Assembly (NCBI GenBank): GCA_964638485.1
Contig: CAZWYX010000001.1
Span: forward strand, 20,752-65,238
Length of the DNA stretch: 44,487 nt
Reading direction: 5' to 3'
Origin: an uncultured Planctomycetales bacterium
GTDB lineage: Bacteria > Omnitrophota > Gorgyraeia > Aquiviventales > CAZWYX01
In this document: positions 4,472 to 43,713 of the stretch, piece by piece
Numbering within the stretch: position 1 is the stretch's first letter
How the letters are laid out: the number at the start of each line of letters is the position of its first letter
Program-made: the position numbers and the translations under genes
The notes under the pieces: generated by a model
Seen by the model: the letters and a program-made list of their open reading frames with translations, nothing else
What the model was told of the DNA's origin: nothing
Database searches by the model: none

Positions 4472-6304
4472 CTAGACGGCGCTCCGGACACTGATCCGTC
4501 GCTGATACACGAACCACTCGAGGACGAACAGGCACGCCCCCATCCAGAGCAGCCAGCGATCCAGCGGACGCGGCTGTGTGGGTGTGGTGGCGGCCACGGG
4601 CGGCGGGCGGTCTACGAGGCTCTCAGGGAGAGACGCAGCCATCTGCAGGAGGTTGGCCTCGGTCTCATCGGTCAGATGCGCATGAAAGGAGAGGCGCAGC
4701 GCTCCAGCGCTGACCGTGTACGTCCCTGCCCACCACGTCTCGGTGAACTCCCAGGGACCACCTGCGTGATGGAGCGTCTGTGTCGCTCCCGTCGGCAGTC
4801 GGACCGTCACCTCACCTGCTGGTACCACCGGGAGCGAAAACGGCGTACCGGTGGAGACGTACCAATACCGATTGGTCGGGGCTAACCAGTGGCAAACATT
4901 CAGGAGCAACACGAGCAGCTCGACCGTCCGCGGCTCCTCCACATTGATCTCATCCCAAGCCAGGGCGGTGACGACCGCTCGAAAACCATGCTGTTCGCCT
5001 ACACCGACGAGCGGGCGACTCTGCTTGCCATCCGACCCCCACACGACCGGCCGCGCCCAGTCAGGCCACGTGACAGGGACGATAGCGCTCACCGGCAGTT
5101 GATCAACGCTGGTGAGGAACCGCGTCGTCGGGTGCGTCGTATCCCAATCCACGATCCGCAGGGGCTGCGTCCGCGTCCTCGTACTCTTCGCGATGAGATA
5201 GAGCGTGGGAGCGGTGGGTGGTTCGCTCGACAGTTGCGCCACCACATCGAGGCGAGGCGCATCCTCGGCGAGGGTTGCGGTCGCCTCTGTCAGCGTCGGT
5301 GTGCTCTGCACCAGGCGCGTCAAGAAGCGCTGCACCGCCGGCGCCAGATCTACCAGTCGCACGGCCACGGTCTGCGCCTCCTGGGAGGCGAGGATGACGG
5401 TGTTGTCTGCCTCCAGCGCATCCCGCGGCGCGCGAATGGTGACGGTCAGCGGATGCGTAGGATCTACAGAGGCCGGCTCGATGACGACCGTTTTCCGCTC
5501 CTGCGGTTGAAGCGCCAGAGATTGCTGGATCGTCTTGGACGCGCCGCCAGCCAGCAACAACTCTACCGTTTGCGGCACCTCGGCAAAGTTGTTGACGGTT
5601 GCTGTGATCAGCGGTGTGCCGGCGCTACCGCGTGACGACACGGCGACGTCGTGGAGGGTGACGTTCGGCTCAGGACGCCCCACCTGATGCCACTCCAGCC
5701 AGGAGGGCAGTGCGTGGTCTGGCGGTGGGAGATCTGTCGCAACGACCAACCGATCCAGGCCGCTCTCCCCTGCCAGCGATTGCGCAAGCTGAACGGCGCC
5801 TGCGAGATCGCCGGCCGCGTCCGTCGGCTGCACACGGTAGATGGCGGCTCGGGCGTCAGCGGCGGTCGTCACCCAGTGCGACGTCACTAACGTCGCGGGC
5901 GTCGTGGACACGACGAGGATGCGATCGTGCGGTTGCCAGTGATTCAGTGCCTGGAGGGCGCGGCCACGCGCCTGGAGGAAGGCGGAAGCCCCACCGGTCT
6001 GACGCTGGAGGCTGGCGGAGTTGTCCAGGATGATCGCGATGGTGTGCCGTGGTCGCACCGCAAACAGCCCATGCAGTCGTGGGCGCGCCAACACCCCGAT
6101 GAGGGCCAGGAGCAAGAGCACCTGCACCAGCAGCAACCAGTTGATCCGCACGAGCTGGGCTTTGGGGAGTTGTTCGCGGAGATGTCGAAACGGGGCTAAA
6201 CTCGGAATGAGGATCGGGCGGCGTGTCTGCTGGAACCGCCACAGCCACAGCAGTGGCCCCAGCAGGAGGAGAAACCATAAGGCGCTTGGAGCCAAGAGTG
6301 ACAC
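4472..6304 (-). CDS. BatA-like protein (N-terminal double-TM aerotolerance-regulator domain plus VWA-like domain)
   Basis: 610 aa. N-terminus LLAPSALWFLLLLGPLLWLW, then IAIILDNSASLQ (DxSxS). C-terminal TM. Sits in the MoxR/DUF58 operon. Confidence 0.75.
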   Translation of the reverse strand: MSLLAPSALWFLLLLGPLLWLWRFQQTRRPILIPSLAPFRHLREQLPKAQLVRINWLLLVQVLLLLALIGVLARPRLHGLFAVRPRHTIAIILDNSASLQRQTGGASAFLQARGRALQALNHWQPHDRILVVSTTPATLVTSHWVTTAADARAAIYRVQPTDAAGDLAGAVQLAQSLAGESGLDRLVVATDLPPPDHALPSWLEWHQVGRPEPNVTLHDVAVSSRGSAGTPLITATVNNFAEVPQTVELLLAGGASKTIQQSLALQPQERKTVVIEPASVDPTHPLTVTIRAPRDALEADNTVILASQEAQTVAVRLVDLAPAVQRFLTRLVQSTPTLTEATATLAEDAPRLDVVAQLSSEPPTAPTLYLIAKSTRTRTQPLRIVDWDTTHPTTRFLTSVDQLPVSAIVPVTWPDWARPVVWGSDGKQSRPLVGVGEQHGFRAVVTALAWDEINVEEPRTVELLVLLLNVCHWLAPTNRYWYVSTGTPFSLPVVPAGEVTVRLPTGATQTLHHAGGPWEFTETWWAGTYTVSAGALRLSFHAHLTDETEANLLQMAASLPESLVDRPPPVAATTPTQPRPLDRWLLWMGACLFVLEWFVYQRRISVRSAV

Positions 6305-8219: not shown

Positions 8220-8230
8220 GCTGTCCTCTA

Positions 8231-8279
8231 CCTTCTGCCTTCTGATCGCTGATGACTGGTGTCTGTACTCTGGTCTCTG
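8231..8279. repeat. seven in-phase heptamers NNNNCTG (minus strand CAGNNNN) filling the spacer upstream of the MoxR gene
   Basis: CCTTCTG CCTTCTG ATCGCTG ATGACTG GTGTCTG TACTCTG GTCTCTG, read directly from the sequence. Confidence 0.9.
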
Positions 8280-8280
8280 G

Positions 8281-10494
8281 TTACTCCTCCGCGCGCTCGT
8301 AAAACCGTCGAATGGCGTCTTGATACTCCGGTGGTAGCGCCCACTCGGTCATCGGTGCAGCCGTCTGTTGTTGCGGATTGAGCGTCACGCGCTCTAAGGG
8401 CACCGTGGGTTGATTGACGATGGTCGTCGGTGCGGCGGTGTCATCGGCGAGTGGTCGCACCTCGGCCAACCGCTCGCCACTGGCGGCTGCTCGATCCCCT
8501 TTGAGCAGAAACCGAAACGGCAATGGAGCGGGGGTAGGCGCAACCGCGGTCGCGGCGCCGTAGAGATTGGGATCGCTCCCAGTCCCTGCCTGATCGGTTT
8601 CACGCGACTCAGACGGCAACTGCCCTGCCTGCGCTTGCTGGAGTTCTTGCAGCGCGCGTTCCATCTCAGCCAGCTGAGCGTCCGTGACCCCGACATCGCC
8701 GCTCCCCCCGCTGGCTTGCTGAAGACCCTGCTCACTGGGACTGGCTTGGCTCGTCGTGGCAGCAGACGGAGCGGCCATCTGCTGGCCGCCTTGTCCACCG
8801 GAGCTGTCGCCCTTGAAGAGCCGTTGCAAGAGACCCGAGAGACCCTGTCCTTGCTGCGGCGAAGACGCTCCAGCGTTCTGGGGAGCCTGCCTCGTCGCGT
8901 CAGTCGCAGCGCCGTCTGGTGATGCGCTTCCCGCGCGTGATCCCGCACGTTGCGCCGCGCCGCCTTGCTCAGCCGGCGTAGGCTGCTGCGGTGTGGCAGA
9001 GGAGGTGGCCGCGTGTTCCCTGTCATCGCCGTCGCGTGGCGTTGGTGTGGCCTGACGAGTTGAGGAGGGGGTGTCGGTCGTTCCTGGCGTGGGTGTTCCT
9101 GTCATCGTGCCTGCCTGCGATTGGCTCGGTGTCGGAACCGATGCCGCAGACGGCGCCTCAGCTGCGCCTCCTGGCCGCGTGGTGTGTTCCGTGTCAGCGG
9201 AAGTTGCTTGTGGTGTCATCGGCTGGGTGTCTCGTCGCTCTCCGCCCTCCCCGTGGGGGCGTGTGGCACCAGCCGATGCCTGATCGCGTGTGGCTGCGTC
9301 GCTCTGCTGTGATGCTGTCGCCTGCGAGCCGGTAAGCCCCTGTTGGAGTGAAGTCAGTTGCTGGGAGACCTGCGCCAGCAGTTGTGAGACTTCCTGTTGG
9401 GCTGCGGTGGCTTGCGGAGTGCCACCACCCTCACGCGACGGTGGCTGCAATCCCATGAGCTGCGCTAGTCGTTGTCCGAAACTCGAAGACGGTGGCTGTG
9501 ACGATGCCGAGGACGAGTCGGTCGTCTGCCCTGTGCCCTGTGGCTCACTCGGTGTCGCAGCACTCGCGGCCGGCTCGCCTGCCTGCCCTGAACCACTGCC
9601 CTGCGCTGCGCCACGTTGCTGTGGGGTAGCACCGCGCTGAGCAGTCCCCATCGCGCCACTCGTGCCACCCGCACCCGTTGTTGGCTGATCAGCGCCTCGA
9701 TCCTGTGGACGCGCCTGACTCGGTGAGCCGCCAGGTGAACCGCTGCTACTGCCTTGTGCGTTTTGTGCGTGCTGCGATGCGCCTTGCTGACCACGCTGCG
9801 AACTGGCCTGTGCCGTGCTTTGCCCCTGCTGTGGCTGACCTGACCCACCAGCACCAGCGGAGGACTGCGGAGACATCCCGATCCCGCCTGAGGGTGGCTG
9901 GGCGCGTTGCGACGATGGTGAGGGCGGTTGTGACGGTGGTGGCGGTGTCTGTGGCTGTGGCGGCGGGGCAGCGGCCGGCTCAGGCTCTGGCGCGCGGGCG
10001 ACGTGCGTGGGGGATGGCAGCGGTGGGAACAACAACAGCAGCGAGCACAGCGCGGCGAGGGTCACGCCTTTCGTGAGCGGCGACCATCGTCGGGTCCGCG
10101 GAAACCACTGCGCCATCGCTGCTGGCGTTAAGCGTTCTTGGAGGTCGCTCACCAACGCTTCGTACATCCGCGGCACAGGCCCGGTCGCCTGGAACCACTC
10201 GCGCGCGGTGAGCAACCGTTCTTGCAAGTGGAGTTGCCGCTCCATCGTCTCGATGGCTGCTGGCGATGAGACCCACTGCTGCACGCGACGATGCCACAGC
10301 GTCCATCCCACCGCCGTCGCCAAGAGGACCCCGCCGACCGCGAGCCACCACGAGCTCGCCCACCGATGGGCGAGGATCGAGCTCAGCACGACGACGGCAG
10401 TGAAGCCGATCAGCCCTTCGCGCGTGAGGGCGCGTGTGAGTTCGCGGTTGTAGTCGCGCCGCAGCGCTTCGATGCGTTCAGCGAGTGGATTCAT
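8281..10494 (-). CDS. two-TM anchored protein with a ~550-aa P/Q/S/T/G/A-rich low-complexity region and a short ordered C-terminal tail (possibly DUF4175-like)
   Basis: 737-aa ORF. N-terminal TMs (GFTAVVVLSSILA, WLAVGGVLLATAVGW). C-terminus PPEYQDAIRRFYERAEE. Lies directly upstream of moxR. Family assignment is from memory only. Confidence 0.55.
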   Translation of the reverse strand: MNPLAERIEALRRDYNRELTRALTREGLIGFTAVVVLSSILAHRWASSWWLAVGGVLLATAVGWTLWHRRVQQWVSSPAAIETMERQLHLQERLLTAREWFQATGPVPRMYEALVSDLQERLTPAAMAQWFPRTRRWSPLTKGVTLAALCSLLLLFPPLPSPTHVARAPEPEPAAAPPPQPQTPPPPSQPPSPSSQRAQPPSGGIGMSPQSSAGAGGSGQPQQGQSTAQASSQRGQQGASQHAQNAQGSSSGSPGGSPSQARPQDRGADQPTTGAGGTSGAMGTAQRGATPQQRGAAQGSGSGQAGEPAASAATPSEPQGTGQTTDSSSASSQPPSSSFGQRLAQLMGLQPPSREGGGTPQATAAQQEVSQLLAQVSQQLTSLQQGLTGSQATASQQSDAATRDQASAGATRPHGEGGERRDTQPMTPQATSADTEHTTRPGGAAEAPSAASVPTPSQSQAGTMTGTPTPGTTDTPSSTRQATPTPRDGDDREHAATSSATPQQPTPAEQGGAAQRAGSRAGSASPDGAATDATRQAPQNAGASSPQQGQGLSGLLQRLFKGDSSGGQGGQQMAAPSAATTSQASPSEQGLQQASGGSGDVGVTDAQLAEMERALQELQQAQAGQLPSESRETDQAGTGSDPNLYGAATAVAPTPAPLPFRFLLKGDRAAASGERLAEVRPLADDTAAPTTIVNQPTVPLERVTLNPQQQTAAPMTEWALPPEYQDAIRRFYERAEE

Positions 10495-10641
10495 GTTCGT
10501 TCAGCGTCCAGCGTCTGACGGCCACGCCGCTGCGTATCGTCTGACGTCCGACGTCTGACGCTTGACGAAACGCCTATTCGTTGCCGCTGGACGTGGAACG
10601 CTTGACGCGCATGGTTCATGGTGAGGTCTACGGTTCGCAAT
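10495..10641. repeat. heptamer-phased intergenic element (copy A) with a conserved core shared with 43551-43629
   Basis: 21 heptamers in one register, e.g. TCGTCTG ACGTCCG ACGTCTG ACGCTTG ACGAAAC and GCTGGAC GTGGAAC GCTTGAC. The core at 10565-10602 matches 43586-43622 at 33 of 38 positions. Confidence 0.85.
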
Positions 10642-10642
10642 G

Positions 10643-18842: not shown

Positions 18843-19388
18843 TTACGACTGCGGCGAAATGTCCACGACCGTGACGTGGAAGCTGAGGGTTTTGCCAGCG
18901 AGGGGGTGATTGAGGTCGAGGGTAACGACGTCATCGGCCACGCCCACAATCCGCGACTGAAACGGCCGCCCCTGCTGATCCTGGCCGCGCAGGAGCTGGC
19001 CTACTTCCGGCACGCTCCCCTTGGGGAGCTGCTCCCGCGACACCTCTATGACGGCCTGGGGGTTCACTTCCCCGTACCCATCAGCGGGCGCCACCGTCAC
19101 ATCTTTGACGTCGCCGACCTGCAAACCGATCAGCTCGCGCTCGAGGCCGGGGATGATCTGGCCCTGGCCATGCACATAGCTCAGCGGCCCACGCCCCTCG
19201 CTCGTATCCACGACTGCTCCGTCCACCGTCAACGTGTAGTCAATTTTCACGGTCATCTGCTCTTGAATCGTTAATGGCGCTTGTCCCCCGTCTTGCTTGG
19301 CAATGCAACCGCCCGCCATCAATACACCGCCGATGAGCGCGCTGACGAGTACGTCGTTCCCCTGTCTCCAGTGCACACGGGCCTCCAT
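18843..19388 (-). CDS. FKBP-type peptidyl-prolyl isomerase (SlyD-like), probable lipoprotein
   Basis: 181 aa. YVHGQGQIIPGLERELIGLQVGD...NHPLAGKTLSFHVTVVDI. N-terminus ends in MAGGC. The ATG lies 1 nt after the moeZ-type stop copy. Confidence 0.85.
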   Translation of the reverse strand: MEARVHWRQGNDVLVSALIGGVLMAGGCIAKQDGGQAPLTIQEQMTVKIDYTLTVDGAVVDTSEGRGPLSYVHGQGQIIPGLERELIGLQVGDVKDVTVAPADGYGEVNPQAVIEVSREQLPKGSVPEVGQLLRGQDQQGRPFQSRIVGVADDVVTLDLNHPLAGKTLSFHVTVVDISPQS

Positions 19389-19455
19389 GTTAGTAGGTAG
19401 GCATCTGTGGATCCACGTCCTCCGCCCAGGCGGTGATGCCGCCCTTTAAATTCTT
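19371..19455. repeat. 85-bp perfect direct repeat, copy 1
   Basis: Identical base for base to 21070-21154. Diverged homology extends to about 19324-19470 versus 21023-21169. Confidence 0.95.
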
Positions 19456-19470
19456 GAGTTTGGTAACACC
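19390..19470 (-). pseudogene. orphan 3' fragment (26 codons plus stop) of a moeZ-type gene
   Basis: Encodes GVTKLKNLKGGITAWAEDVDPQMPTY*, versus GFTKLKNLKGGITAWAEDVDPQMPTY* in the intact gene. Differences outside the 85-bp core: 1 aa change (F to V) plus synonymous changes. Confidence 0.85.
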
Positions 19471-19519
19471 AGCAAATTCACTGACTCGGTAACTGACTGA
19501 CGTAGACCAGGGAGCCCAT

Positions 19520-19546
19520 TACAGCGCGCCCAGGCGGGCGCGGAGG
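19520..19546. repeat. 27-bp perfect direct repeat copy 1, contains a 7-bp-stem hairpin
   Basis: TACAGCGCGCCCAGGCGGGCGCGGAGG, identical to 20149-20175. Hairpin CGCGCCC-AGGC-GGGCGCG. Confidence 0.9.
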
Positions 19547-19571
19547 GTGTGTGCTTCCTTAGCCAGGGGGG

Positions 19572-21019: not shown

Positions 21020-21087
21020 AAGACACTCCCACTGAGCACGCTGATGAGGACACTGTTCCCCTGCTTCCCGTGCACACGGGCCTCCAT
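21016..21087 (-). pseudogene. diverged duplicate of the first 23 codons of the FKBP gene
   Basis: MEARVHGKQGNSVLISVLSGSVL* versus the FKBP N-terminus MEARVHWRQGNDVLVSALIGGVL. Confidence 0.7.
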
Positions 21088-21154
21088 GTTAGTAGGTAGG
21101 CATCTGTGGATCCACGTCCTCCGCCCAGGCGGTGATGCCGCCCTTTAAATTCTT
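21070..21154. repeat. 85-bp perfect direct repeat, copy 2
   Basis: Identical to 19371-19455. Confidence 0.95.
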
Positions 21155-22522
21155 CAGCTTCGTAAACCCGGCCTCGCGGAGGATCTGGAGCGCTTTCCAA
21201 CTGCGGCCGCCGGATTTGCAGTGCAGGACGATCGGCTCAGCGGAGTTGAGTTCATGCATGCGCTCGGTAAATTCGCTTAACGGAATAAGCTGCGCGCCCT
21301 CGATGTGGCAGATGTCCCATTCATGCGGTTCGCGCACATCAATGACCCTCACATCTTGCCCGTTTTTGAGGAGCGTCTCGAGCTCTTGGGGTGCGATCTC
21401 CCACCCTTGCCGCTCATCGGTGGGCTCCGGCTGCTGCGCGTGAGCGCCGGGAAGCCCACAGAACTGCTCGTAGTCAATGAGCTTCATGATCGTGCGCTTC
21501 GGGCCACAGATCGGGCACGCTCCATCTTTCTTCAATTGCAGTTCACGGAACCGCATCTTGAGCGCATTGATGAGGAGCAATCTTCCCACTAACGTGTCGG
21601 GCTTGCCGAGGATAATTTTGATCGCCTCGGTGGCCTGAATGACGCCGATGAGGCCGGGCAAGATTCCAAGGACGCCACCTTCCGCGCAACTGGGCACGAG
21701 TCCCGGCGGCGGGGGTTCGGGATACAAGCAGCGGTAGCATGGACCTTTCCTCGCATCGAAGACCGAGGCTTGTCCCTCAAAGCGGAAGATGCTGCCGTAG
21801 ACGTTGGGCTTGCCGAGCAGCACACACGCATCGTTGACGAGGTAGCGCGTGGGAAAGTTGTCCGTCCCATCAATGATGATGTCGTACGGTTTGAAGATTT
21901 CGAGCGCATTGTCCGACGAGAGGCGTGTTTCATGCAGCTCAATCTCGATGTGCGGATTGATGGCTTGCAAGTGCTCTTTGGCTGCTTGCAGTTTAGGTTT
22001 GCCGACGTCTGGAGTCGTGTAGAGAATTTGGCGCTGGAGATTGGTGAAGTCTACCTTGTCCATGTCCACGAGACCCAGTTTGCCCACGCCAGCCGCAGCC
22101 AAGTAGAGGCCCAGCGGTGAGCCCAGACCGCCCATGCCGACCAAGAGAACCTTCGCCTCTTTGAGCTTGCGCTGACCTGCCATGCCCACTTCCGGCATGA
22201 TGAGGTGGCGGCTGTAGCGTTTGATTTCCTCATTCGAAAGATCGGCCCCACCGGCCACCGAGGGCACAATCGCGAGTTCATCACCGTCGTTAATCGGCGT
22301 GGCTAAGCCGCGCTGCGCGCGAATGTCCTCCTCGTTGACAAAGATGTTCACGAAGCTGCGTAGTTTGCCCGTGTCATCAAAGAGGTGTTGTTTCAGGGCG
22401 GCGTGCTGCGCAACCAAGCGCGTCAAGGCATCGCCAACTGTCGTCGCGCTGTTGACGGTAAAGGTCTCGCGCTTGTTGGCGTAGGCCTGTAACGCCGTGG
22501 GCAATAGAATCGTCGCCGTCAT
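21089..22522 (-). CDS. moeZ: fusion protein: MoaD/ThiS/CysO-like ubiquitin-fold domain (internal GG), MoeB/ThiF-type adenylyltransferase, rhodanese domain
   Basis: ATG at 22522 in an ATGA overlap with the cysM stop. Residues 1-92 end ...DELAIVPSVAGG. Then YSRHLIMPEVG..VGMGGLGSP..CYRC..CPICG. C-terminal rhodanese has LHCKSGGRS. Confidence 0.8.
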   Translation of the reverse strand: MTATILLPTALQAYANKRETFTVNSATTVGDALTRLVAQHAALKQHLFDDTGKLRSFVNIFVNEEDIRAQRGLATPINDGDELAIVPSVAGGADLSNEEIKRYSRHLIMPEVGMAGQRKLKEAKVLLVGMGGLGSPLGLYLAAAGVGKLGLVDMDKVDFTNLQRQILYTTPDVGKPKLQAAKEHLQAINPHIEIELHETRLSSDNALEIFKPYDIIIDGTDNFPTRYLVNDACVLLGKPNVYGSIFRFEGQASVFDARKGPCYRCLYPEPPPPGLVPSCAEGGVLGILPGLIGVIQATEAIKIILGKPDTLVGRLLLINALKMRFRELQLKKDGACPICGPKRTIMKLIDYEQFCGLPGAHAQQPEPTDERQGWEIAPQELETLLKNGQDVRVIDVREPHEWDICHIEGAQLIPLSEFTERMHELNSAEPIVLHCKSGGRSWKALQILREAGFTKLKNLKGGITAWAEDVDPQMPTY

Positions 22523-23484
22523 GACGCTTCCTCCCAAAATCGGTCACTCAAATACCGGCTCCCACCATCGGGAAAAATCATGACAAGGACGCCCTGTTCA
22601 ATCTGTGTGGCGATGTGGAGTGCTGCGGCCAGCGCCGCTCCCGACGAGGGGCCCACGAGGAGGCCTTCCTGTCGCGCGAGTTGTTTGACGCGACGGTACG
22701 CCTCTTCTGTTGAAATGTAGAGCGTTTGGTCCGGCAGAGCCCGATCGTAAATGCCAGGGACGATGGCGGCCTTCATGTGCTTGAGGCCCTCCAGGCCATG
22801 AAACGCGGCGTCCGGCTCCACAGCGATCAGCTGAATCTGCGGATTGTACCTTTTCAATCGCCGTCCTGTACCGACGAGTGTGCCAGCCGTTCCAAGACCT
22901 GCCACGAAGTGGGTGACTTCACCATGCGTTTGTTCCCAAATTTCTGGGCCGGTCGTTTCAAAGTGCGCCTTCCAATTCTCGTCGTTGTTGTACTGATCCG
23001 GAAAGAAGTAGCGCTCCGGATGCTCGGCGTAGAGCCGTTTGACTTCGCGAATCGCACCGTCGGTACTTTCCAGCGGCGTCGTAAAAATGAGCTCCGCACC
23101 GTAGGCCTTCAAGATCCGCTTCCGTTCTTCGCTCACGTTCGCAGGGATCGCCAGTTGTACGCGATACCCTTTGACCGCGGCAATCATGGCATAGGCAATA
23201 CCGGTGTTGCCCGACGTTGCGTCCAAAATAATTTTGTCTTTCGTGAGCTGGCCTGAGCGCTCCCCCGCTTGCAGCATGCGCAGCGCCGGACGATCTTTGA
23301 CTGAGCCACCGGGATTTTCCCACTCCGCCTTTGCCAGCAACGTCACGTGCGGCGCCTCCGCCTGTGCGATCTTGCGCAGTCGCAGCAAAGACGTCTTCCC
23401 CACTTTGGAGAGTAATTCCTCTCCCAGCGCGAGGTGTTGTTTGACTGCGGCTTCAGTGCCTGTCTGCATGATTTGTTTTAGCAC
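22519..23484 (-). CDS. cysM: PLP-dependent cysteine synthase (CysM/CysK family)
   Basis: 321 aa. GSVKDRPA and TSGNTGIAYA motifs. The cysM symbol is inferred from the adjacent CysO-like sulfur-carrier domain. Confidence 0.8.
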   Translation of the reverse strand: MLKQIMQTGTEAAVKQHLALGEELLSKVGKTSLLRLRKIAQAEAPHVTLLAKAEWENPGGSVKDRPALRMLQAGERSGQLTKDKIILDATSGNTGIAYAMIAAVKGYRVQLAIPANVSEERKRILKAYGAELIFTTPLESTDGAIREVKRLYAEHPERYFFPDQYNNDENWKAHFETTGPEIWEQTHGEVTHFVAGLGTAGTLVGTGRRLKRYNPQIQLIAVEPDAAFHGLEGLKHMKAAIVPGIYDRALPDQTLYISTEEAYRRVKQLARQEGLLVGPSSGAALAAALHIATQIEQGVLVMIFPDGGSRYLSDRFWEEAS

Positions 23485-23554
23485 ATAGCACTTGGTACTG
23501 AGTACATCGTGTGTGGTGCCGGCCCACTATGTACGATGCACGATGTACGGACCT
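23485..23554. repeat. heptamer-phased spacer with a 10-bp perfect inverted repeat
   Basis: TTGGTAC TGAGTAC ... CTATGTA CGATGCA CGATGTA. Inverted repeat GTACATCGTG (23502-23511) and CACGATGTAC (23539-23548). Confidence 0.8.
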
Positions 23555-23558
23555 TTAA

Positions 23559-32574: not shown

Positions 32575-33291
32575 TCAAATTGCAAGGGTGGTTTTGCCCT
32601 GTAAGAGGCTCCAGTACTGCGCAATGAGTCGTGCTACGTGGGAGAGCGTAGCCAGAACTCCCACCTGCGCAAGAGAGGTCATGCGGGTTGCTGGGTGGCG
32701 GCAGATGGTGATGCGATCGAAGGGCGCAAGGTCGCAGGAGACGTTCAGCGCGAAGCCGTGCCACACGACGCCGCGCGAGACCTGGATGCCGATGGAGGCG
32801 ACTTTGCGCTCCTCGACGTAGACGCCGCGCGTGGGGCCCTCGCAGTGCGCGTCCACGCCAAAGGTTCGTACCGTCGCCACGAGGACGTACTCGAGGCAAT
32901 CGAGATAGTCCGACACGCGCCAGCCCCACTCGCGCAGTCTCAGAATCGGGTACCCGACGAGTTGGCCTGGGCCATGGTACGTCGCCCCTCCGCCACGCCC
33001 GACACGGTAGATGGGCACGTCGCGTACGCCGCGCAGATCCTCAAGCGACGTACCGACGCCGAGCGTGTAGGTCGGCGGATGCTCACAGAGGATGAGGGTG
33101 TCTACCCCTTCCCCACGTTGCCGCTCGAGCACAATTTGTTGCTGCAAAGCAAGGACTTCCTCGTACGACCGCAAGCCTAGAGCAAGAGTATGCGCGGTTC
33201 GGGGTTCGGGGTTCGGGGTTCGGGTATCGCCAAGGTGTATCGGGTCTTGATACCCGATACCCGATACCCGATACCCGACGTCTTCCTTCAT
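32575..33291 (-). CDS. lipB: lipoyl(octanoyl) transferase
   Basis: 238 aa. LILCEHPPTYTLG, RGGGATYHGPGQLVGYP, and KVASIGIQVSRGVVWHGFALNV. The only in-frame ATG/GTG upstream of the conserved core is the ATG at 33291 (ATGA overlap with the lpdA stop), so the heptamer array is read as codons. Confidence 0.85.
   Translation of the reverse strand: MKEDVGYRVSGIGYQDPIHLGDTRTPNPEPRTAHTLALGLRSYEEVLALQQQIVLERQRGEGVDTLILCEHPPTYTLGVGTSLEDLRGVRDVPIYRVGRGGGATYHGPGQLVGYPILRLREWGWRVSDYLDCLEYVLVATVRTFGVDAHCEGPTRGVYVEERKVASIGIQVSRGVVWHGFALNVSCDLAPFDRITICRHPATRMTSLAQVGVLATLSHVARLIAQYWSLLQGKTTLAI
33194..33277. repeat. 12 in-phase heptamers forming an inverted arrangement, inside the predicted lipB N-terminus
   Basis: GCGGTTC GGGGTTC x3 GGGTATC GCCAAGG TGTATCG GGTCTTG ATACCCG x4. 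CGGGTATCG is complementary to CGATACCCG. Confidence 0.92.
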
Positions 33292-34673
33292 CGGTGGATG
33301 GCGCGTTTCTCGGTGTCGAGCGCGGCTTCGCGCAGCGCCTCGGCAATCGCTGGATGCGGGGCAATCGTTGCTTCCCAGTCGCGGATGGCGCCCTGAAAAT
33401 GGTGCATCAGCCCCACCTGCGAGATGAGCTCGTTGATGTGCGGCCCGATGAGATGCGCACCGATGAGACGGCCGGTGGCTTCCTCGGTGAGCAGCTTGAC
33501 AAACCCTTCAGGCGTCCCATCGCACCACGCCTTGCCGCTGCCCTGCAAAAAGAAGCGGCCGGCGCGCACGTTGAGTCCTTGCGCCCGCGCCTGTGGTTCA
33601 GTCAAGCCGACGCTGGCGATCTCGGGTTGGCTAAACGTGCAGCGTGGAATCCACTGCCGATCGTACGGCTCAGGCGTACGCTGGCCCGCGAGCATCTCGA
33701 CGACGCGCGCCGCCTCAAAGGACGCTCGATGCGCCATCATCGGTCCCTTCACGCAGTCACCGATGGCGAAAATATGGGATTGCGTGGTGCGATTCATCGC
33801 ATCAATCTGGATCCAGCCCTCATCCAGCGCGATGCCTGCTGCCTCAAGGCCGATGTCATCCACATTGGCAACCCGACCGATGGCGACCAACACCCACTCG
33901 GCCTCGATGCGCGTGCGCTCTTCTCCGACGGTCAGCGCGATGTGAGCACCGCGTGGGGACACCGCAAGACTCTGGAGGCGAACGCCTGTCACATTCCGAA
34001 TGCCGCGTGCGTCAAATTGGCGCAGCAGCTCGCGGCTGACCTCAGGGTCTTCCTGGGGCACGAGGAACGTCTCGCGTTCAAGCAGCGTGACCGTGCTTCC
34101 AAACGCGGCGTACACCGTCGCCATCTCCACTCCCACCGCACCTGCTCCGATGATGAGGAGTGACGCCGGCACACGAGTCTTTTGCAGGAGGTGATCGCTA
34201 CTGAGGATGACGCGACCATCAAAAGGGGTACCTGGCAGCGGGCGCGGCCGAGAGCCGGTGGCCAGGATGAGCTGCGCAGCCGTGAGCTGCTGGCCACCGA
34301 CGACGACGGTGTGCGCATCAGCGAGGCGGCCGATGCCACTGAAGACCTCCACCGCGTGTTTGCGCAGGAGTCCTTGCAGCCCCTCGTAGAGCTGCGCGAC
34401 GACGTCGCCGGCGCGTCGCATCGCCTGCGCAAAATCGAGCTGCACCTCCCGTGGCGTGACACCAAAACGGCTGGCGTTCCGCACCAGCTCGGCGATTTCA
34501 GCGCTGCGCAGCAGGGCTTTCGTGGGGATGCAACCGATGTGGAGGCAGACTCCGCCGACGCGCTCCCGCTCGACGAGGGCCACACGCAAGCCGAGTTGCC
34601 GTGCGCGAATCGCGGCGGTGTAGCCGCCTGTGCCACCTCCTAGAATGATCAGATCGTAGGTGGCCACGGACAA
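33288..34673 (-). CDS. lpdA: dihydrolipoyl dehydrogenase
   Basis: 461 aa. ILGGGTGGY, redox disulfide GGVCLHIGCIPTK, C-terminal HPAIAEAL. Confidence 0.92.
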   Translation of the reverse strand: MSVATYDLIILGGGTGGYTAAIRARQLGLRVALVERERVGGVCLHIGCIPTKALLRSAEIAELVRNASRFGVTPREVQLDFAQAMRRAGDVVAQLYEGLQGLLRKHAVEVFSGIGRLADAHTVVVGGQQLTAAQLILATGSRPRPLPGTPFDGRVILSSDHLLQKTRVPASLLIIGAGAVGVEMATVYAAFGSTVTLLERETFLVPQEDPEVSRELLRQFDARGIRNVTGVRLQSLAVSPRGAHIALTVGEERTRIEAEWVLVAIGRVANVDDIGLEAAGIALDEGWIQIDAMNRTTQSHIFAIGDCVKGPMMAHRASFEAARVVEMLAGQRTPEPYDRQWIPRCTFSQPEIASVGLTEPQARAQGLNVRAGRFFLQGSGKAWCDGTPEGFVKLLTEEATGRLIGAHLIGPHINELISQVGLMHHFQGAIRDWEATIAPHPAIAEALREAALDTEKRAIHR

Positions 34674-39740: not shown

Positions 39741-39945
39741 CAGGCGTGCTCTCCAGCACCGGAGCCGCTGTCACGCGCCGACACATCTGTTCGTTCATCC
39801 ACTGTTCGAGCGCGCCTCGGTCAAATCGCCACTGGTTGCCGACTTTAAAGGCCGGCAGTTTCTGTCGCCGCGCCAGACGGTACACCGTAATTTCATCCAC
39901 ATCCAAGAGATGGGCCACCTCGCGCGCGGACATCACAGGTTTCAT
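39724..39945 (-). CDS. excisionase/MerR-type helix-turn-helix DNA-binding protein
   Basis: 73 aa. MSAREVAHLLDVDEITVYRLARRQKLPAFKVGNQWRF. GAGGAGG RBS. Overlaps the kinase start by 17 nt. Confidence 0.8.
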   Translation of the reverse strand: MKPVMSAREVAHLLDVDEITVYRLARRQKLPAFKVGNQWRFDRGALEQWMNEQMCRRVTAAPVLESTPDDLTD

Positions 39946-39980
39946 CGCTCCTCCTCACCTGTTGCCAGCTCAGGGCACAC

Positions 39981-40006
39981 AAAAAGCGGCCGCGCAATCG
40001 GCCGCT
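39981..40006 (-). terminator. intrinsic terminator in the operon leader
   Basis: Minus-strand AGCGGCCG-AUUGCG-CGGCCGCU followed by UUUUGUGUG. Confidence 0.7.
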
Positions 40007-40245
40007 GCATGGGACACGGACTCGATGGCACTGGCAACCCGGCCATCCGCCGACGATCTCTGGCGGATCCGTGGCTTTGCCCTCCTCCGCGCTGCTTCGC
40101 GAAAGCTCGCAGCGCTTCAGCGGGTCCTGCATCGCTTCTCTAATCGCTTGAGCGACGGAGAGCGATGCAGGACGTCCCCCGATTACTCGGGGTTTGCCCT
40201 GAGCAGTACCTCTTAACGTGCTTCGTACGCAGTACTGTACTCTCT
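39981..40245 (-). promoter_or_regulatory. structured 5' leader: candidate c-di-GMP-I (GEMM-I)-like riboswitch carrying a ~93-nt insertion
   Basis: CAGGGCAAACC-CCGA-GUAA-UCGG-GGGACG (40201-40173). CAAAGCCACGG-hairpin-GGCCGGGUUGCC (40079-40033). Closing helix GGUACUG/CAGUGCC. The terminator follows. See the finding at 39968-40280. Confidence 0.45.
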
Positions 40246-40251
40246 AGTACA

Positions 40252-40280
40252 AGTATAGAAGATACCGCGCTCAAATACAA
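40252..40280 (-). promoter_or_regulatory. candidate promoter TTGTAT-17-TATACT for the leader RNA
   Basis: -35 at 40280-40275 and -10 at 40257-40252. GTAC-containing palindromes (GTACTAGAGAGTAC, AGTACAGTACT) lie around the predicted start. Confidence 0.45.
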
Positions 40281-40310
40281 GGGCTAGACAACACAGTTCA
40301 ACACACGACA

Positions 40311-40349
40311 AAAATTACATAACTGATTATTTTATTGAGAGTTATGTAA
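40311..40349 (-). terminator. AU-rich hairpin terminator after the small membrane-protein gene
   Basis: Perfect 10-bp inverted repeat TTACATAACT (40315-40324) and AGTTATGTAA (40340-40349), 15-nt loop, then UUUUUG on the minus strand. Confidence 0.5.
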
Positions 40350-40356
40350 CACGTAC

Positions 40357-41838: not shown

Positions 41839-41839
41839 T

Positions 41840-41992
41840 GGTTCGGGGTGGGTCCGTTCGTCGTTCGTCGTTCGTGGATCGTGATTCGCACACAGCGGGC
41901 GCCGGCCCCCTGCCTTTGGCGCCGAACGCGAAACTCTCAACGCTGAACTGCTCTACCTGCTGACCCTTCAATCTCGAGCCGTGAGCTTCGAT
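41840..41992. repeat. heptamer-phased spacer between convergent genes, arms of opposite polarity
   Basis: Left arm: GGTTCGG GGTGGGT CCGTTCG TCGTTCG TCGTTCG TGGATCG TGATTCG. Centre: GGCGCC-N14-GGCGCC. Right arm: CGAACGC GAAACTC TCAACGC TGAACTG ... Confidence 0.8.
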
Positions 41993-41994
41993 GG

Positions 41995-42993: not shown

Positions 42994-43058
42994 GATCAGT
43001 CCTATTGTAGGATGACTTGCAACCTCTCGCAATCACCAATTACACAGGAGACACCACC

Positions 43059-43475
43059 ATGAAATCGTACCGCGAAGAACTCTGGTTCAATACGAAGACG
43101 CGCACCGCTTTCACCAACATCACCACGCAGGTAGAATCGGCGGTCAAGCACAGTGGCGTACGCGAAGGACTCTGCCTCGTCAATGCGATGCACATCACCG
43201 CCAGCGTCTATATCAACGATGACGAGTCGGGACTGCTCAAGGACTACGAGGAGTTTCTCGAGCGGCTGGTCCCCTACGACGTCAAGAAATACCGCCACAA
43301 CTTAACCGGTGAAGACAACGGCGACGCCCACATCAAACGCCAGCTCATGGGCCGCGAGGTGGTCGTGGCGATCACGAAGGGTGCGTTGGATTTTGGGCCG
43401 TGGGAACAAATTTTCTACGGGGAGTTCGATGGACGACGGAAGAAGCGTGTGCTCATCAAAATCATCGGGGAGTAA
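43059..43475 (+). CDS. YjbQ/UPF0047-family protein
   Basis: ATG at 43059 after a CAGGAGA RBS. 138 aa. [12 protein letters not shown]...[15 protein letters not shown]...[15 protein letters not shown]. Confidence 0.8.
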
Positions 43476-43713
43476 GCTGTGAGTGCGCGTTGAGAGTTCA
43501 GAGTTCAGAGGACCGCGTGCGTTTTGCGTCAAGCGTCGAGGGGCAACGGCCTGCGTAACGTCCAACGTCTCACGTCAGACGTGGGACGAAACGCCCTTCG
43601 TTGCCGCCGGACGTTGGACGCGGGACGACGGTGTGGAGTGTGCAGAGCGCAGAGTTCAGCGTTGAGAGGGCAGAGGGAACCGTGACCAGCGACTAGCGAC
43701 TAGCGACGACGTG
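43476..43713. repeat. 34 consecutive degenerate heptamers in a single register (includes element copy B)
   Basis: Examples: TTGAGAG TTCAGAG TTCAGAG; GCGTAAC GTCCAAC GTCTCAC GTCAGAC GTGGGAC; GGACGTT GGACGCG GGACGAC; AGAGCGC AGAGTTC AGCGTTG AGAGGGC AGAGGGA; CTAGCGA CTAGCGA. Confidence 0.9.

Follow-up and report, generated by a model that had tools for sequence, protein, structure and literature searches.

Within a 44,487-nt window of contig CAZWYX010000001.1 (positions 20,752 to 65,238), from an uncultured bacterium placed by GTDB in the Omnitrophota, the spacer at 43476-43692 separates the stop codons of two convergent genes identified by Pfam: a YjbQ/UPF0047 gene (43017-43475, + strand) and an alpha/beta hydrolase gene of the Hydrolase_4 family (43693 to beyond 44487, - strand). 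This spacer (lag-7 z of 9.8 to 10.4) and six others in the window carry a 7-nt periodicity that is real and statistically strong. We think it probable that these spacers are heptanucleotide microsatellites born of replication slippage, belonging to the long simple-sequence-repeat class LSSR5-11 and arranged in part as inverted arrays, as in Xanthomonas. A first-pass annotation had listed slipped-strand mutable spacers, protein-binding arrays, RNA structure, and replication-slippage scars as possible roles for the sequence at 43476-43713, and committed to none of them. Among these options, slippage scars fit best, whereas mutable spacers are unsupported at the strain divergence available and a single binding protein is unlikely.

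The reported period of 7 nt is borne out by the self-identity of 43476-43713: with z scores taken from 500 dinucleotide shuffles, lag 7 gave 0.57 (z = 10.4), lag 14 gave 0.43 (z = 5.3), and lag 21 gave 0.34 (z = 2.3). Using a gene model built from gene calls on matching contigs, Pfam matches, and GC content at third codon positions (GC3), we counted 24 spacers of at least 40 nt in the window. Seven of these had lag-7 z scores of 4.8 to 9.8 (1662-1861, 8220-8280, 10495-10642, 23470-23558, 33181-33287, 41839-41994, and 43476-43692), and the remaining 17 had scores below 2. All five other spacers previously named as phased at 7 nt are among the seven (z of 4.8 to 7.7), and 1662-1861 (z = 5.3) is a further periodic spacer that the earlier list had lacked. 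Of 127 coding tiles of 150 nt, just one exceeded a z of 3 at lag 7, and across the whole window no non-triplet lag other than 7 reached 0.6 in any 56-nt window. The earlier statement that the phasing is not found in coding sequence holds for nearly all tiles but fails at gene ends, where the exceptions are confined to the tail of the hydrolase gene and the first 34 codons of the lipB open reading frame (ORF).

Tandem Repeats Finder (TRF) returned eight intergenic 7-nt arrays of 3.0 to 4.3 copies with 73 to 100% matches, and arrays of up to 7.9 copies with lenient settings. Unrelated units coexist among them (GGGGTTC, GGGTATC, CGTTCGT, GAGTTCA, GACTAGC, CGTCTGA, CCAGAGA, and AGCACAT), and perfect arrays adjoin decayed arrays in the same spacers. 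By orientation of the flanking genes, five of the periodic spacers are co-directional and two are convergent; none of the three divergent spacers is periodic.

From left to right, the 43476-43692 spacer comprises a GAGTTCA/TTCAGAG array of about 4.4 units (43481-43510, + strand; TRF), a dispersed palindrome (43511-43636, - strand; nhmmer and blastn), a GTGCAGA/AGAGNNC array of about six units (43633-43675, + strand; TRF and motif phases), and a GACTAGC array of 3.4 units (43684-43707, + strand; TRF and sequence). The arrays at 43481-43510 and 43633-43675 are one unit family in registers offset by 3 to 4 nt. With strict settings, TRF found 7-nt arrays at 43489-43510 and 43684-43707 in 43476-43713; with lenient settings, six sub-arrays made up about 80% of the spacer. 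Motif phases modulo 7 shift along this sequence: ACGT moves from phase 5 (four times) to 2, CGTC from 2 to 6, GACG from 4 to 1, AGAG occupies 3 in the left part and 0 in the right part, and TTCAG shifts from 0 to 4. By lag 28 to 35, self-identity at multiples of 7 has dropped to background, and the next strongest lags (32, 39, 46, 130, and 137) are all equal to 4 modulo 7. The single continuous register of 34 units described by the first-pass annotation is ruled out by these 3- to 4-nt shifts in motif phase and by the long-lag autocorrelation. Nor is the spacer built entirely of heptamers, as had been claimed, since about 80% of it is heptameric and the stretch at 43589-43604, which lies within a conserved 24-nt core, is not. 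The impression of one register arises because any chopping frame makes locally 7-periodic DNA look periodic, and the loose families that had been proposed (e.g., GNNNNAC) were redefined at each new register. The array does run into the end of the hydrolase gene, as previously noted: the GACTAGC array spans its stop codon (43693-43695) and last four codons. In relatives, the C-terminal tails of the hydrolase, corresponding to 43693-43707, vary in length and sequence past a conserved WLR motif.

The palindrome at the center of the spacer was not seen in the first-pass annotation. It is an imperfect palindrome of about 115 to 125 nt, present in three copies within about 48 kb. Copy A is the one at 43511-43636 (- strand; nhmmer E = 3e-34). 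Copy B (10487-10616, - strand) occupies the spacer 10495-10642 between two minus-strand genes and ends at the ATG of a 737-aa ORF. Copy C (contig L087, 2954-3083) lies past the end of the window, in a 167-nt spacer directly upstream of the hydrolase start. Pairwise identities among the copies are 76 to 83% over 70 to 113 nt (E of 1e-17 to 1e-20); by blastn, A and B are 76% identical over 113 nt and A and C are 79% identical over 92 nt. Common to all three is an invariant, non-heptameric 24-nt core (GCGGCAACGA..GGCGTTTCGTC; approximately 43585-43608 on the - strand in copy A), flanked by arms of GCGTC/ACGTC/GACGC-type heptamers. The inverted repeat in copy A has 48-nt arms (43526-43573 and 43574-43621) that are 73% complementary, and a profile of the composite matches itself in reverse orientation (nhmmer, E = 6e-16). 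The copies are oriented alike relative to minus-strand genes, and both B and C end at the ATG of a gene. Exact searches with the core gave two chance matches in coding-like sequence in a metagenome collection that evidently does not include the source contigs, and zero matches in a viral collection.

The window matches contigs of JGI 3300009444, JGI 3300022563, and ENA ERZ27245685 at 99.7 to 100% identity. As four contigs assembled independently from three samples carry this sequence, an assembly artefact, which the first-pass annotation had allowed for, is ruled out. The contig of one assembly breaks off exactly at the 43476-43692 spacer, and such arrays may break metagenome assemblies. In a strain alignment of about 52 kb, the only indel is a 15-nt tandem duplication (TTTTAGCACATAGCA) at 23490 (ENA contig L003, approximately 9393-9407), which falls inside the periodic spacer 23470-23558. 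Elsewhere in these near-identical contigs, strain differences are clustered exactly 3 nt apart (21695-21707, 33606-33615, and 4781-4899); as this is the spacing of third-codon-position changes, the clusters suggest short recombination tracts from a diverged allele.

Three relatives retain the gene order AMMECR1/Memo, hydrolase, convergent YjbQ, with identities to the window of 65% for AMMECR1/Memo, 63 to 67% for the hydrolase, and 90% for YjbQ. In all three, the hydrolase start and the gene upstream of it share 4 nt (ATGA), compared to a spacing of 167 nt in the window organism. The hydrolase-YjbQ junction is a 14-nt overlap in one relative and a 36-nt gap in another, compared to 217 nt in the window organism. 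Because relatives with the same gene order have overlaps or 36 nt at these places, the 167-nt and 217-nt heptamer spacers are lineage-specific insertions or expansions. A relative with a 77% identical MoxR likewise has no spacer upstream of MoxR, as judged from gene calls only. In one relative (L090, 1200-1270), the 36-nt hydrolase-YjbQ spacer consists of a perfect hairpin, 10 bp long, whose ACTCGCTT-type units repeat every 8 nt; this may be the same growth process in its smallest form.

For a comparison across phyla, we used 80 loci (1.2 Mb) from a YjbQ scan of GTDB genomes; the scan covered many phyla and, the protein being too conserved, yielded zero close relatives. In these control loci, periodic regions numbered 17 at lag 7, which was the most frequent non-triplet period, seven at lag 8, and one or two at each of lags 4, 5, 10, 11, and 13. 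The density of period-7 regions is about 10 times higher in the window than in the control loci. The phenomenon is not confined to this contig; such confinement is what the first-pass annotation had named as counting against it. The nested inverted-array layout recurs in metagenome-assembled genomes (MAGs) from Pyrinomonadaceae, from Planctomycetota, and from a hydrothermal vent. At the MAG sites with nested inverted arrays (L034, 2747-2931; L079, 978-1061 and 12419-12537; L072, 5320-5570), outer arrays face their inverted complements, e.g., (GGGTTCA)4 ... (TGAACCC)4, and the units of the inner array contain a 6-bp palindrome (AGATCT).

Heptanucleotides are reported to be the most abundant class of long simple sequence repeats in many bacteria, and polymerase slippage has been proposed as their origin (Mrazek et al. 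2007, as summarized in PMC4679880 and PMC4692102). As described in those summaries, the LSSR5-11 repeats (Mrazek, Guo and Shah 2007) resemble the window arrays in having tandem 7-nt units above chance, a noncoding location, free-living bacterial hosts, many different units, and a proposed origin by slippage. The window arrays likewise show head-to-tail tandem iteration, excess over composition, and concentration outside coding sequence (7 of 24 spacers against 1 of 127 tiles). Compared to the class as so summarized, they are mostly short and much decayed, and families follow one another across whole spacers; their host belongs to an uncultured lineage outside the 2007 survey, and one composite is dispersed as a block.

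A parallel in layout comes from the G-quadruplex (G4) heptamers of Xanthomonas and Nostoc (GGGNATC and GGGGA(C/T)T; Rehm et al. 2015, PMC4692102). In two Xanthomonas genomes, about 185 GGGAATC-type arrays were counted apiece, with four units preferred and about 70 to 75 inverted pairs. Most of the arrays separate co-oriented ORFs, and 16% are in convergent and 7 to 8% in divergent positions; their length differs between species, X. campestris and X. axonopodis keeping the type of array while the number of units changes, and most inverted pairs are transcribed (PMC4692102). The orientation classes of the window (five, two, and none) match this placement. In the window, the paired arrays at 33181-33287 (TRF matches of 100%; lag-7 z of 7.7) consist of (GGGGTTC)4 on the + strand (33196-33224, with a G4 motif at 33201-33224) and (GGGTATC)4 on the - strand (33249-33278, with a G4 motif at 33249-33276), as located by TRF and regular expressions. 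As in Xanthomonas, there are about four units, inverted pairs on opposite strands, and a co-oriented or convergent placement that is rarely divergent, and the GGGNATC unit with at least four G-tracts is itself present at 33249-33276 (- strand) as a predicted G4 motif. Unlike in Xanthomonas, however, the G-rich type occurs in only one of the seven window spacers, and no unit dominates as GGGAATC does. By regular expression, G4 motifs were found in both arrays of 33181-33287 and in neither 43476-43713, whose units are GAGTTCA, GCGTC/ACGTC, and GACTAGC, nor the other five spacers.

The first-pass annotation had named a single comparable system, the short tandemly repeated repetitive (STRR) heptamers of heterocystous cyanobacteria. 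That comparison is right in kind, as STRR sequences are also intergenic tandem heptamer arrays with several families per genome, but STRR is not the sole comparable system, given LSSR5-11 and the Xanthomonas GGGAATC repeats. The STRR units said to have been described by Mazel and colleagues in 1990 reportedly include CCCCAGT, TTGGTCA, and CAACAGT, and these three form no tandem dimer on either strand of the window. The host is not cyanobacterial either, as had been remarked: the GC content of the window is about 62% (56 to 67%), and the closest named homologues are Omnitrophica MAG proteins at 46 to 65% identity, with relatives of YjbQ spread across Acidobacteriota, Nitrospirota, and others. 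STRR heptamers are cited from Calothrix PCC 7601 (PMC4692102). The TAACTGA repeats of marine Beggiatoaceae, cyanobacteria, and Bacteroidetes (MacGregor 2015, PMC4679880) similarly comprise two to six intergenic heptamer units, often directly upstream of starts, but they are one specific unit in nearly always direct orientation, whereas the window units are diverse and often inverted, and TAACTGA is unrepeated there. STRR, TAACTGA, and GGGAATC units are thus ruled out, as none is tandemly repeated in the window. The phenomenon belongs to a known and poorly understood class, to which the dispersed composite hairpin adds a detail.

Under the slippage reading, replication slippage would create and homogenize short arrays, typically of three to four perfect units and of no more than about eight decayed ones. 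Point mutation would then decay these arrays, and variant units would re-expand beside the old ones, which could produce a patchwork of successive 7-nt families in differing registers. The presence of many unrelated units, with young arrays beside decayed ones, fits slippage and would not be predicted from one binding protein. Concerted evolution within the arrays of 33181-33287 is indicated by the right arm, where one GATACCC unit is followed by three GAACCCC units. Also in favor of slippage are the location of the only strain indel, a tandem duplication, within a periodic spacer, the lack of these spacers in relatives, the Xanthomonas-like gene orientations, and the prevalence of lag 7 in the control loci. 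Arrays would persist where they do little harm, at co-oriented and convergent junctions, and not in promoter-bearing divergent spacers or in genes except at their extreme ends. A palindromic unit (GACGTC) or an array beside its inverted complement could fold into a DNA or RNA hairpin in which 4 to 5 of every 7 nt pair and the variable positions are looped out; such hairpins would be a by-product, or possibly a selected property. Template switching at quasi-palindromes could grow both arms together. Finally, the one composite of about 120 nt has been copied to at least three junctions, presumably by recombination or transposition.

Several points weigh against this reading. Slippage does not account for the preference for 7 over 5 or 8 as unit length. 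The contigs at 99.7 to 100% identity show no differences of 7 or 14 nt in length, and the single indel is 15 nt long, so ongoing slippage is not directly shown; at this divergence, the idea of slipped-strand mutable spacers is likewise unsupported. Slippage alone cannot explain the composite, because its non-heptameric 24-nt core is common to copies A, B, and C, and a copying step is needed. The recurrence of inverted-array hairpins across phyla could mean a selected function, and both the distinction between conserved paired and variable loop positions in the three copies and their shared orientation could mean selection. The scope is also narrow, at about 48 kb of the source genome.

The alternative that survives best, although we consider it unlikely, is that the arrays are selected RNA or DNA hairpins, acting as terminators that lack a U-tract, as barriers to 3' exonucleases, or as intercistronic processing or insulation elements similar to repetitive extragenic palindromes (REP), in which the 7-nt lattice builds and lengthens the stems. 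The occurrence of arrays in both convergent spacers and in no divergent one is in keeping with such a role, as are two of the predicted folds. The RNA of 33181-33290 (- strand) forms a regular hairpin, pairing (GGGUAUC)4 with (GAACCCC)4 at 5 bp per 7 nt (-46 kcal/mol, z = -4.1), and the RNA of copy B folds with a z of -3.2. These, however, are the only two of eight period-7 spacers to fold better than dinucleotide shuffles. Copies A and C, 41839-41994, 23470-23558, 1662-1800, and 8220-8280 show no such advantage: the RNA of 8220-8280 is essentially unstructured (-5.5 kcal/mol, z = 0.05), and that of 41842-41990 has a z of +1.5. The RNA structure proposed in the first-pass annotation therefore holds in two of eight spacers and is ruled out as a universal explanation, and the common denominator is period 7, not structure. 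The consensus fold of A, B, and C (35 pairs) is similarly two-sided. It pairs the conserved CGUC/GACG and leaves the variable 2 to 3 nt of each unit as internal loops, which favors selected hairpins, as does the like orientation of the copies relative to minus-strand genes, but a compensatory change was found in only 1 of the 35 pairs and the covariation term is unfavorable. Inverted array pairs in other phyla and in Xanthomonas, where they are mostly transcribed (PMC4692102), favor selection. Relatives, on the other hand, function with overlapping genes and without a spacer, and no Rfam match, tRNA, or canonical terminator was detected in the spacers.

We consider it quite unlikely that 7-nt-lattice hairpins form a distinct, widespread, and as yet unnamed class of bacterial intergenic elements with a generating or copying mechanism of their own. 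Such an element would consist of an array, a loop, and an inverted array, often nested, with 4 to 5 paired and 2 to 3 looped positions per unit. Template switching would be one candidate mechanism, extending both arms in 7-nt steps and seeding new junctions. If this were true, the A/B/C family would be an actively spreading member of the class, and the arrays would be more than passive debris of slippage.

More doubtful again is the proposal that the composite of about 120 nt, and perhaps other arrays, represents a nonautonomous mobile element at gene junctions, similar to REP sequences or to MITEs (miniature inverted-repeat transposable elements), with the flanking heptamer arrays as secondary growth. 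Three copies at 76 to 83% identity within 48 kb, built around a conserved non-heptameric core in an imperfect palindrome, invite this comparison, and the composite lies at places where the genes of relatives are closely spaced or overlap. Like REP sequences, bacterial interspersed mosaic elements (BIMEs), and MITEs, it is dispersed as homologous copies, capable of forming a hairpin, extragenic, and located between co-oriented or convergent genes. Unlike them, it has arms made of a 7-nt lattice in place of a single 20- to 40-nt palindrome, only three copies, and no defined ends or terminal inverted repeats that we could find. Around the 167-nt insert that holds copy C, ATGA is duplicated (L087, 2919-2922 and 3090-3093), whereas relatives have a single overlapping ATGA (L088, approximately 846; L089, approximately 1144), as might be expected of a target-site duplication. 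This is not diagnostic of transposition, however, because any viable insertion into a stop/start overlap must duplicate ATGA. Homology between the copies ends inside the insert, so that its limits differ from those of the insert, whose ends do not form inverted repeats. Searches of the metagenome and viral collections for the exact core gave nothing bar the two chance matches in coding sequence, and no transposase was identified in a window that was only partly screened for one and that represents, with its flank, about 48 kb of the genome.

Very improbable, finally, are binding lattices for a protein with a 7-nt step (a cold-shock, S1, or HutP-like RNA binder, or a nucleoid protein) that regulates translation or transcription of the neighboring genes: some arrays do abut starts (8220-8280 provides AGAAGG/GAGGA motifs directly in front of the ATG of MoxR, and copies B and C each stop at an ATG), in a placement resembling that proposed for the Beggiatoaceae TAACTGA repeats (PMC4679880), and a GTTC/GAAC motif is seen in several unit families, but the unit sequences, of which more than six are unrelated, vary too much to suit a single sequence-specific protein, register is lost across families, arrays also occur between convergent stop codons where there is no start site, and they are absent from relatives with the same genes.

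The remaining periodic spacers differ in composition. Nine NCAGANN units fill the whole spacer at 8220-8280 (- strand), which separates the 737-aa ORF's stop codon from the start of MoxR; with self-matches of 0.54 to 0.67 at all multiples from lag 7 to lag 42, this is the sole spacer that is truly in one register. Between convergent genes, 41839-41994 (z = 5.8; TRF) has a CGTTCGT array at its left side and, at its right, GAACGCN/CTGAACT units of inverted families. AGCACAT and GTACGAT/CACGATG arrays occupy 23470-23558 (lag-7 z of 4.8), and GGTTCGN/TCGTCGT arrays occupy 1685-1768 within the spacer 1662-1861 (lag-7 z of 5.3; TRF and gene calls). The latter spacer also holds, at 1796-1819, two copies of a 12-nt unit containing the palindrome CCTACGTAGG/CCACGTAGG (ACCTACGTAGGTACCCACGTAGGT). 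The arrays of 33181-33287 lie within the longest lipB ORF (32575-33291, - strand), whose first 34 codons cross the arrays at 33194-33277. Profile matches to LipB begin at residue 35 of this ORF, and the only start codon before that residue is the ATG at 33291, which overlaps the stop codon of an lpdA-like gene (ATGA). From the position of this sole upstream ATG and of the profile start, the heptamer arrays at 33194-33278 may be read in frame, which would give LipB 34 extra N-terminal residues.

The 737-aa ORF between two periodic spacers (8281-10494, - strand) lies upstream of a MoxR, DUF58, VWA, VWA gene cluster and encodes a hydrophobic segment at the N terminus and a long stretch of low complexity with many Ser, Gln, Gly, Pro, Ala, and Thr residues. 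No Pfam match was obtained for it, and the JGI gene caller retained just its last 182 codons. Exact look-ups of this ORF and of an epimerase returned no matches, probably owing to differences in called start codons. Two other regions were of note. A 137-bp direct repeat with about 90% identity (19334-19470 and 21033-21168) reads, on alignment, as the 3' end of an ORF with a rhodanese domain, followed by the opening codons of the gene after it, and the spacer 19377-19571 thus appears to hold a gene-fragment duplicate. The region 39741-40356 (about 600 nt) yielded no convincing gene, as its candidate ORFs had no Pfam matches and a weak GC3 contrast, and it gave no period-7 signal.

An excess of intergenic 7-nt repeats in bacteria was noted in 2007 and is still unexplained. 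The present evidence opens no new kind of system; this contig offers a clean and dense example of the excess from a poorly sampled lineage. Compared to relatives, its junctions go from overlapping genes to 167 to 217 nt of heptamer DNA and so illustrate how spacers can grow in a compact genome, and in places the arrays have been absorbed into the ends of genes, as in the tail of the hydrolase and, possibly, the N terminus of LipB.

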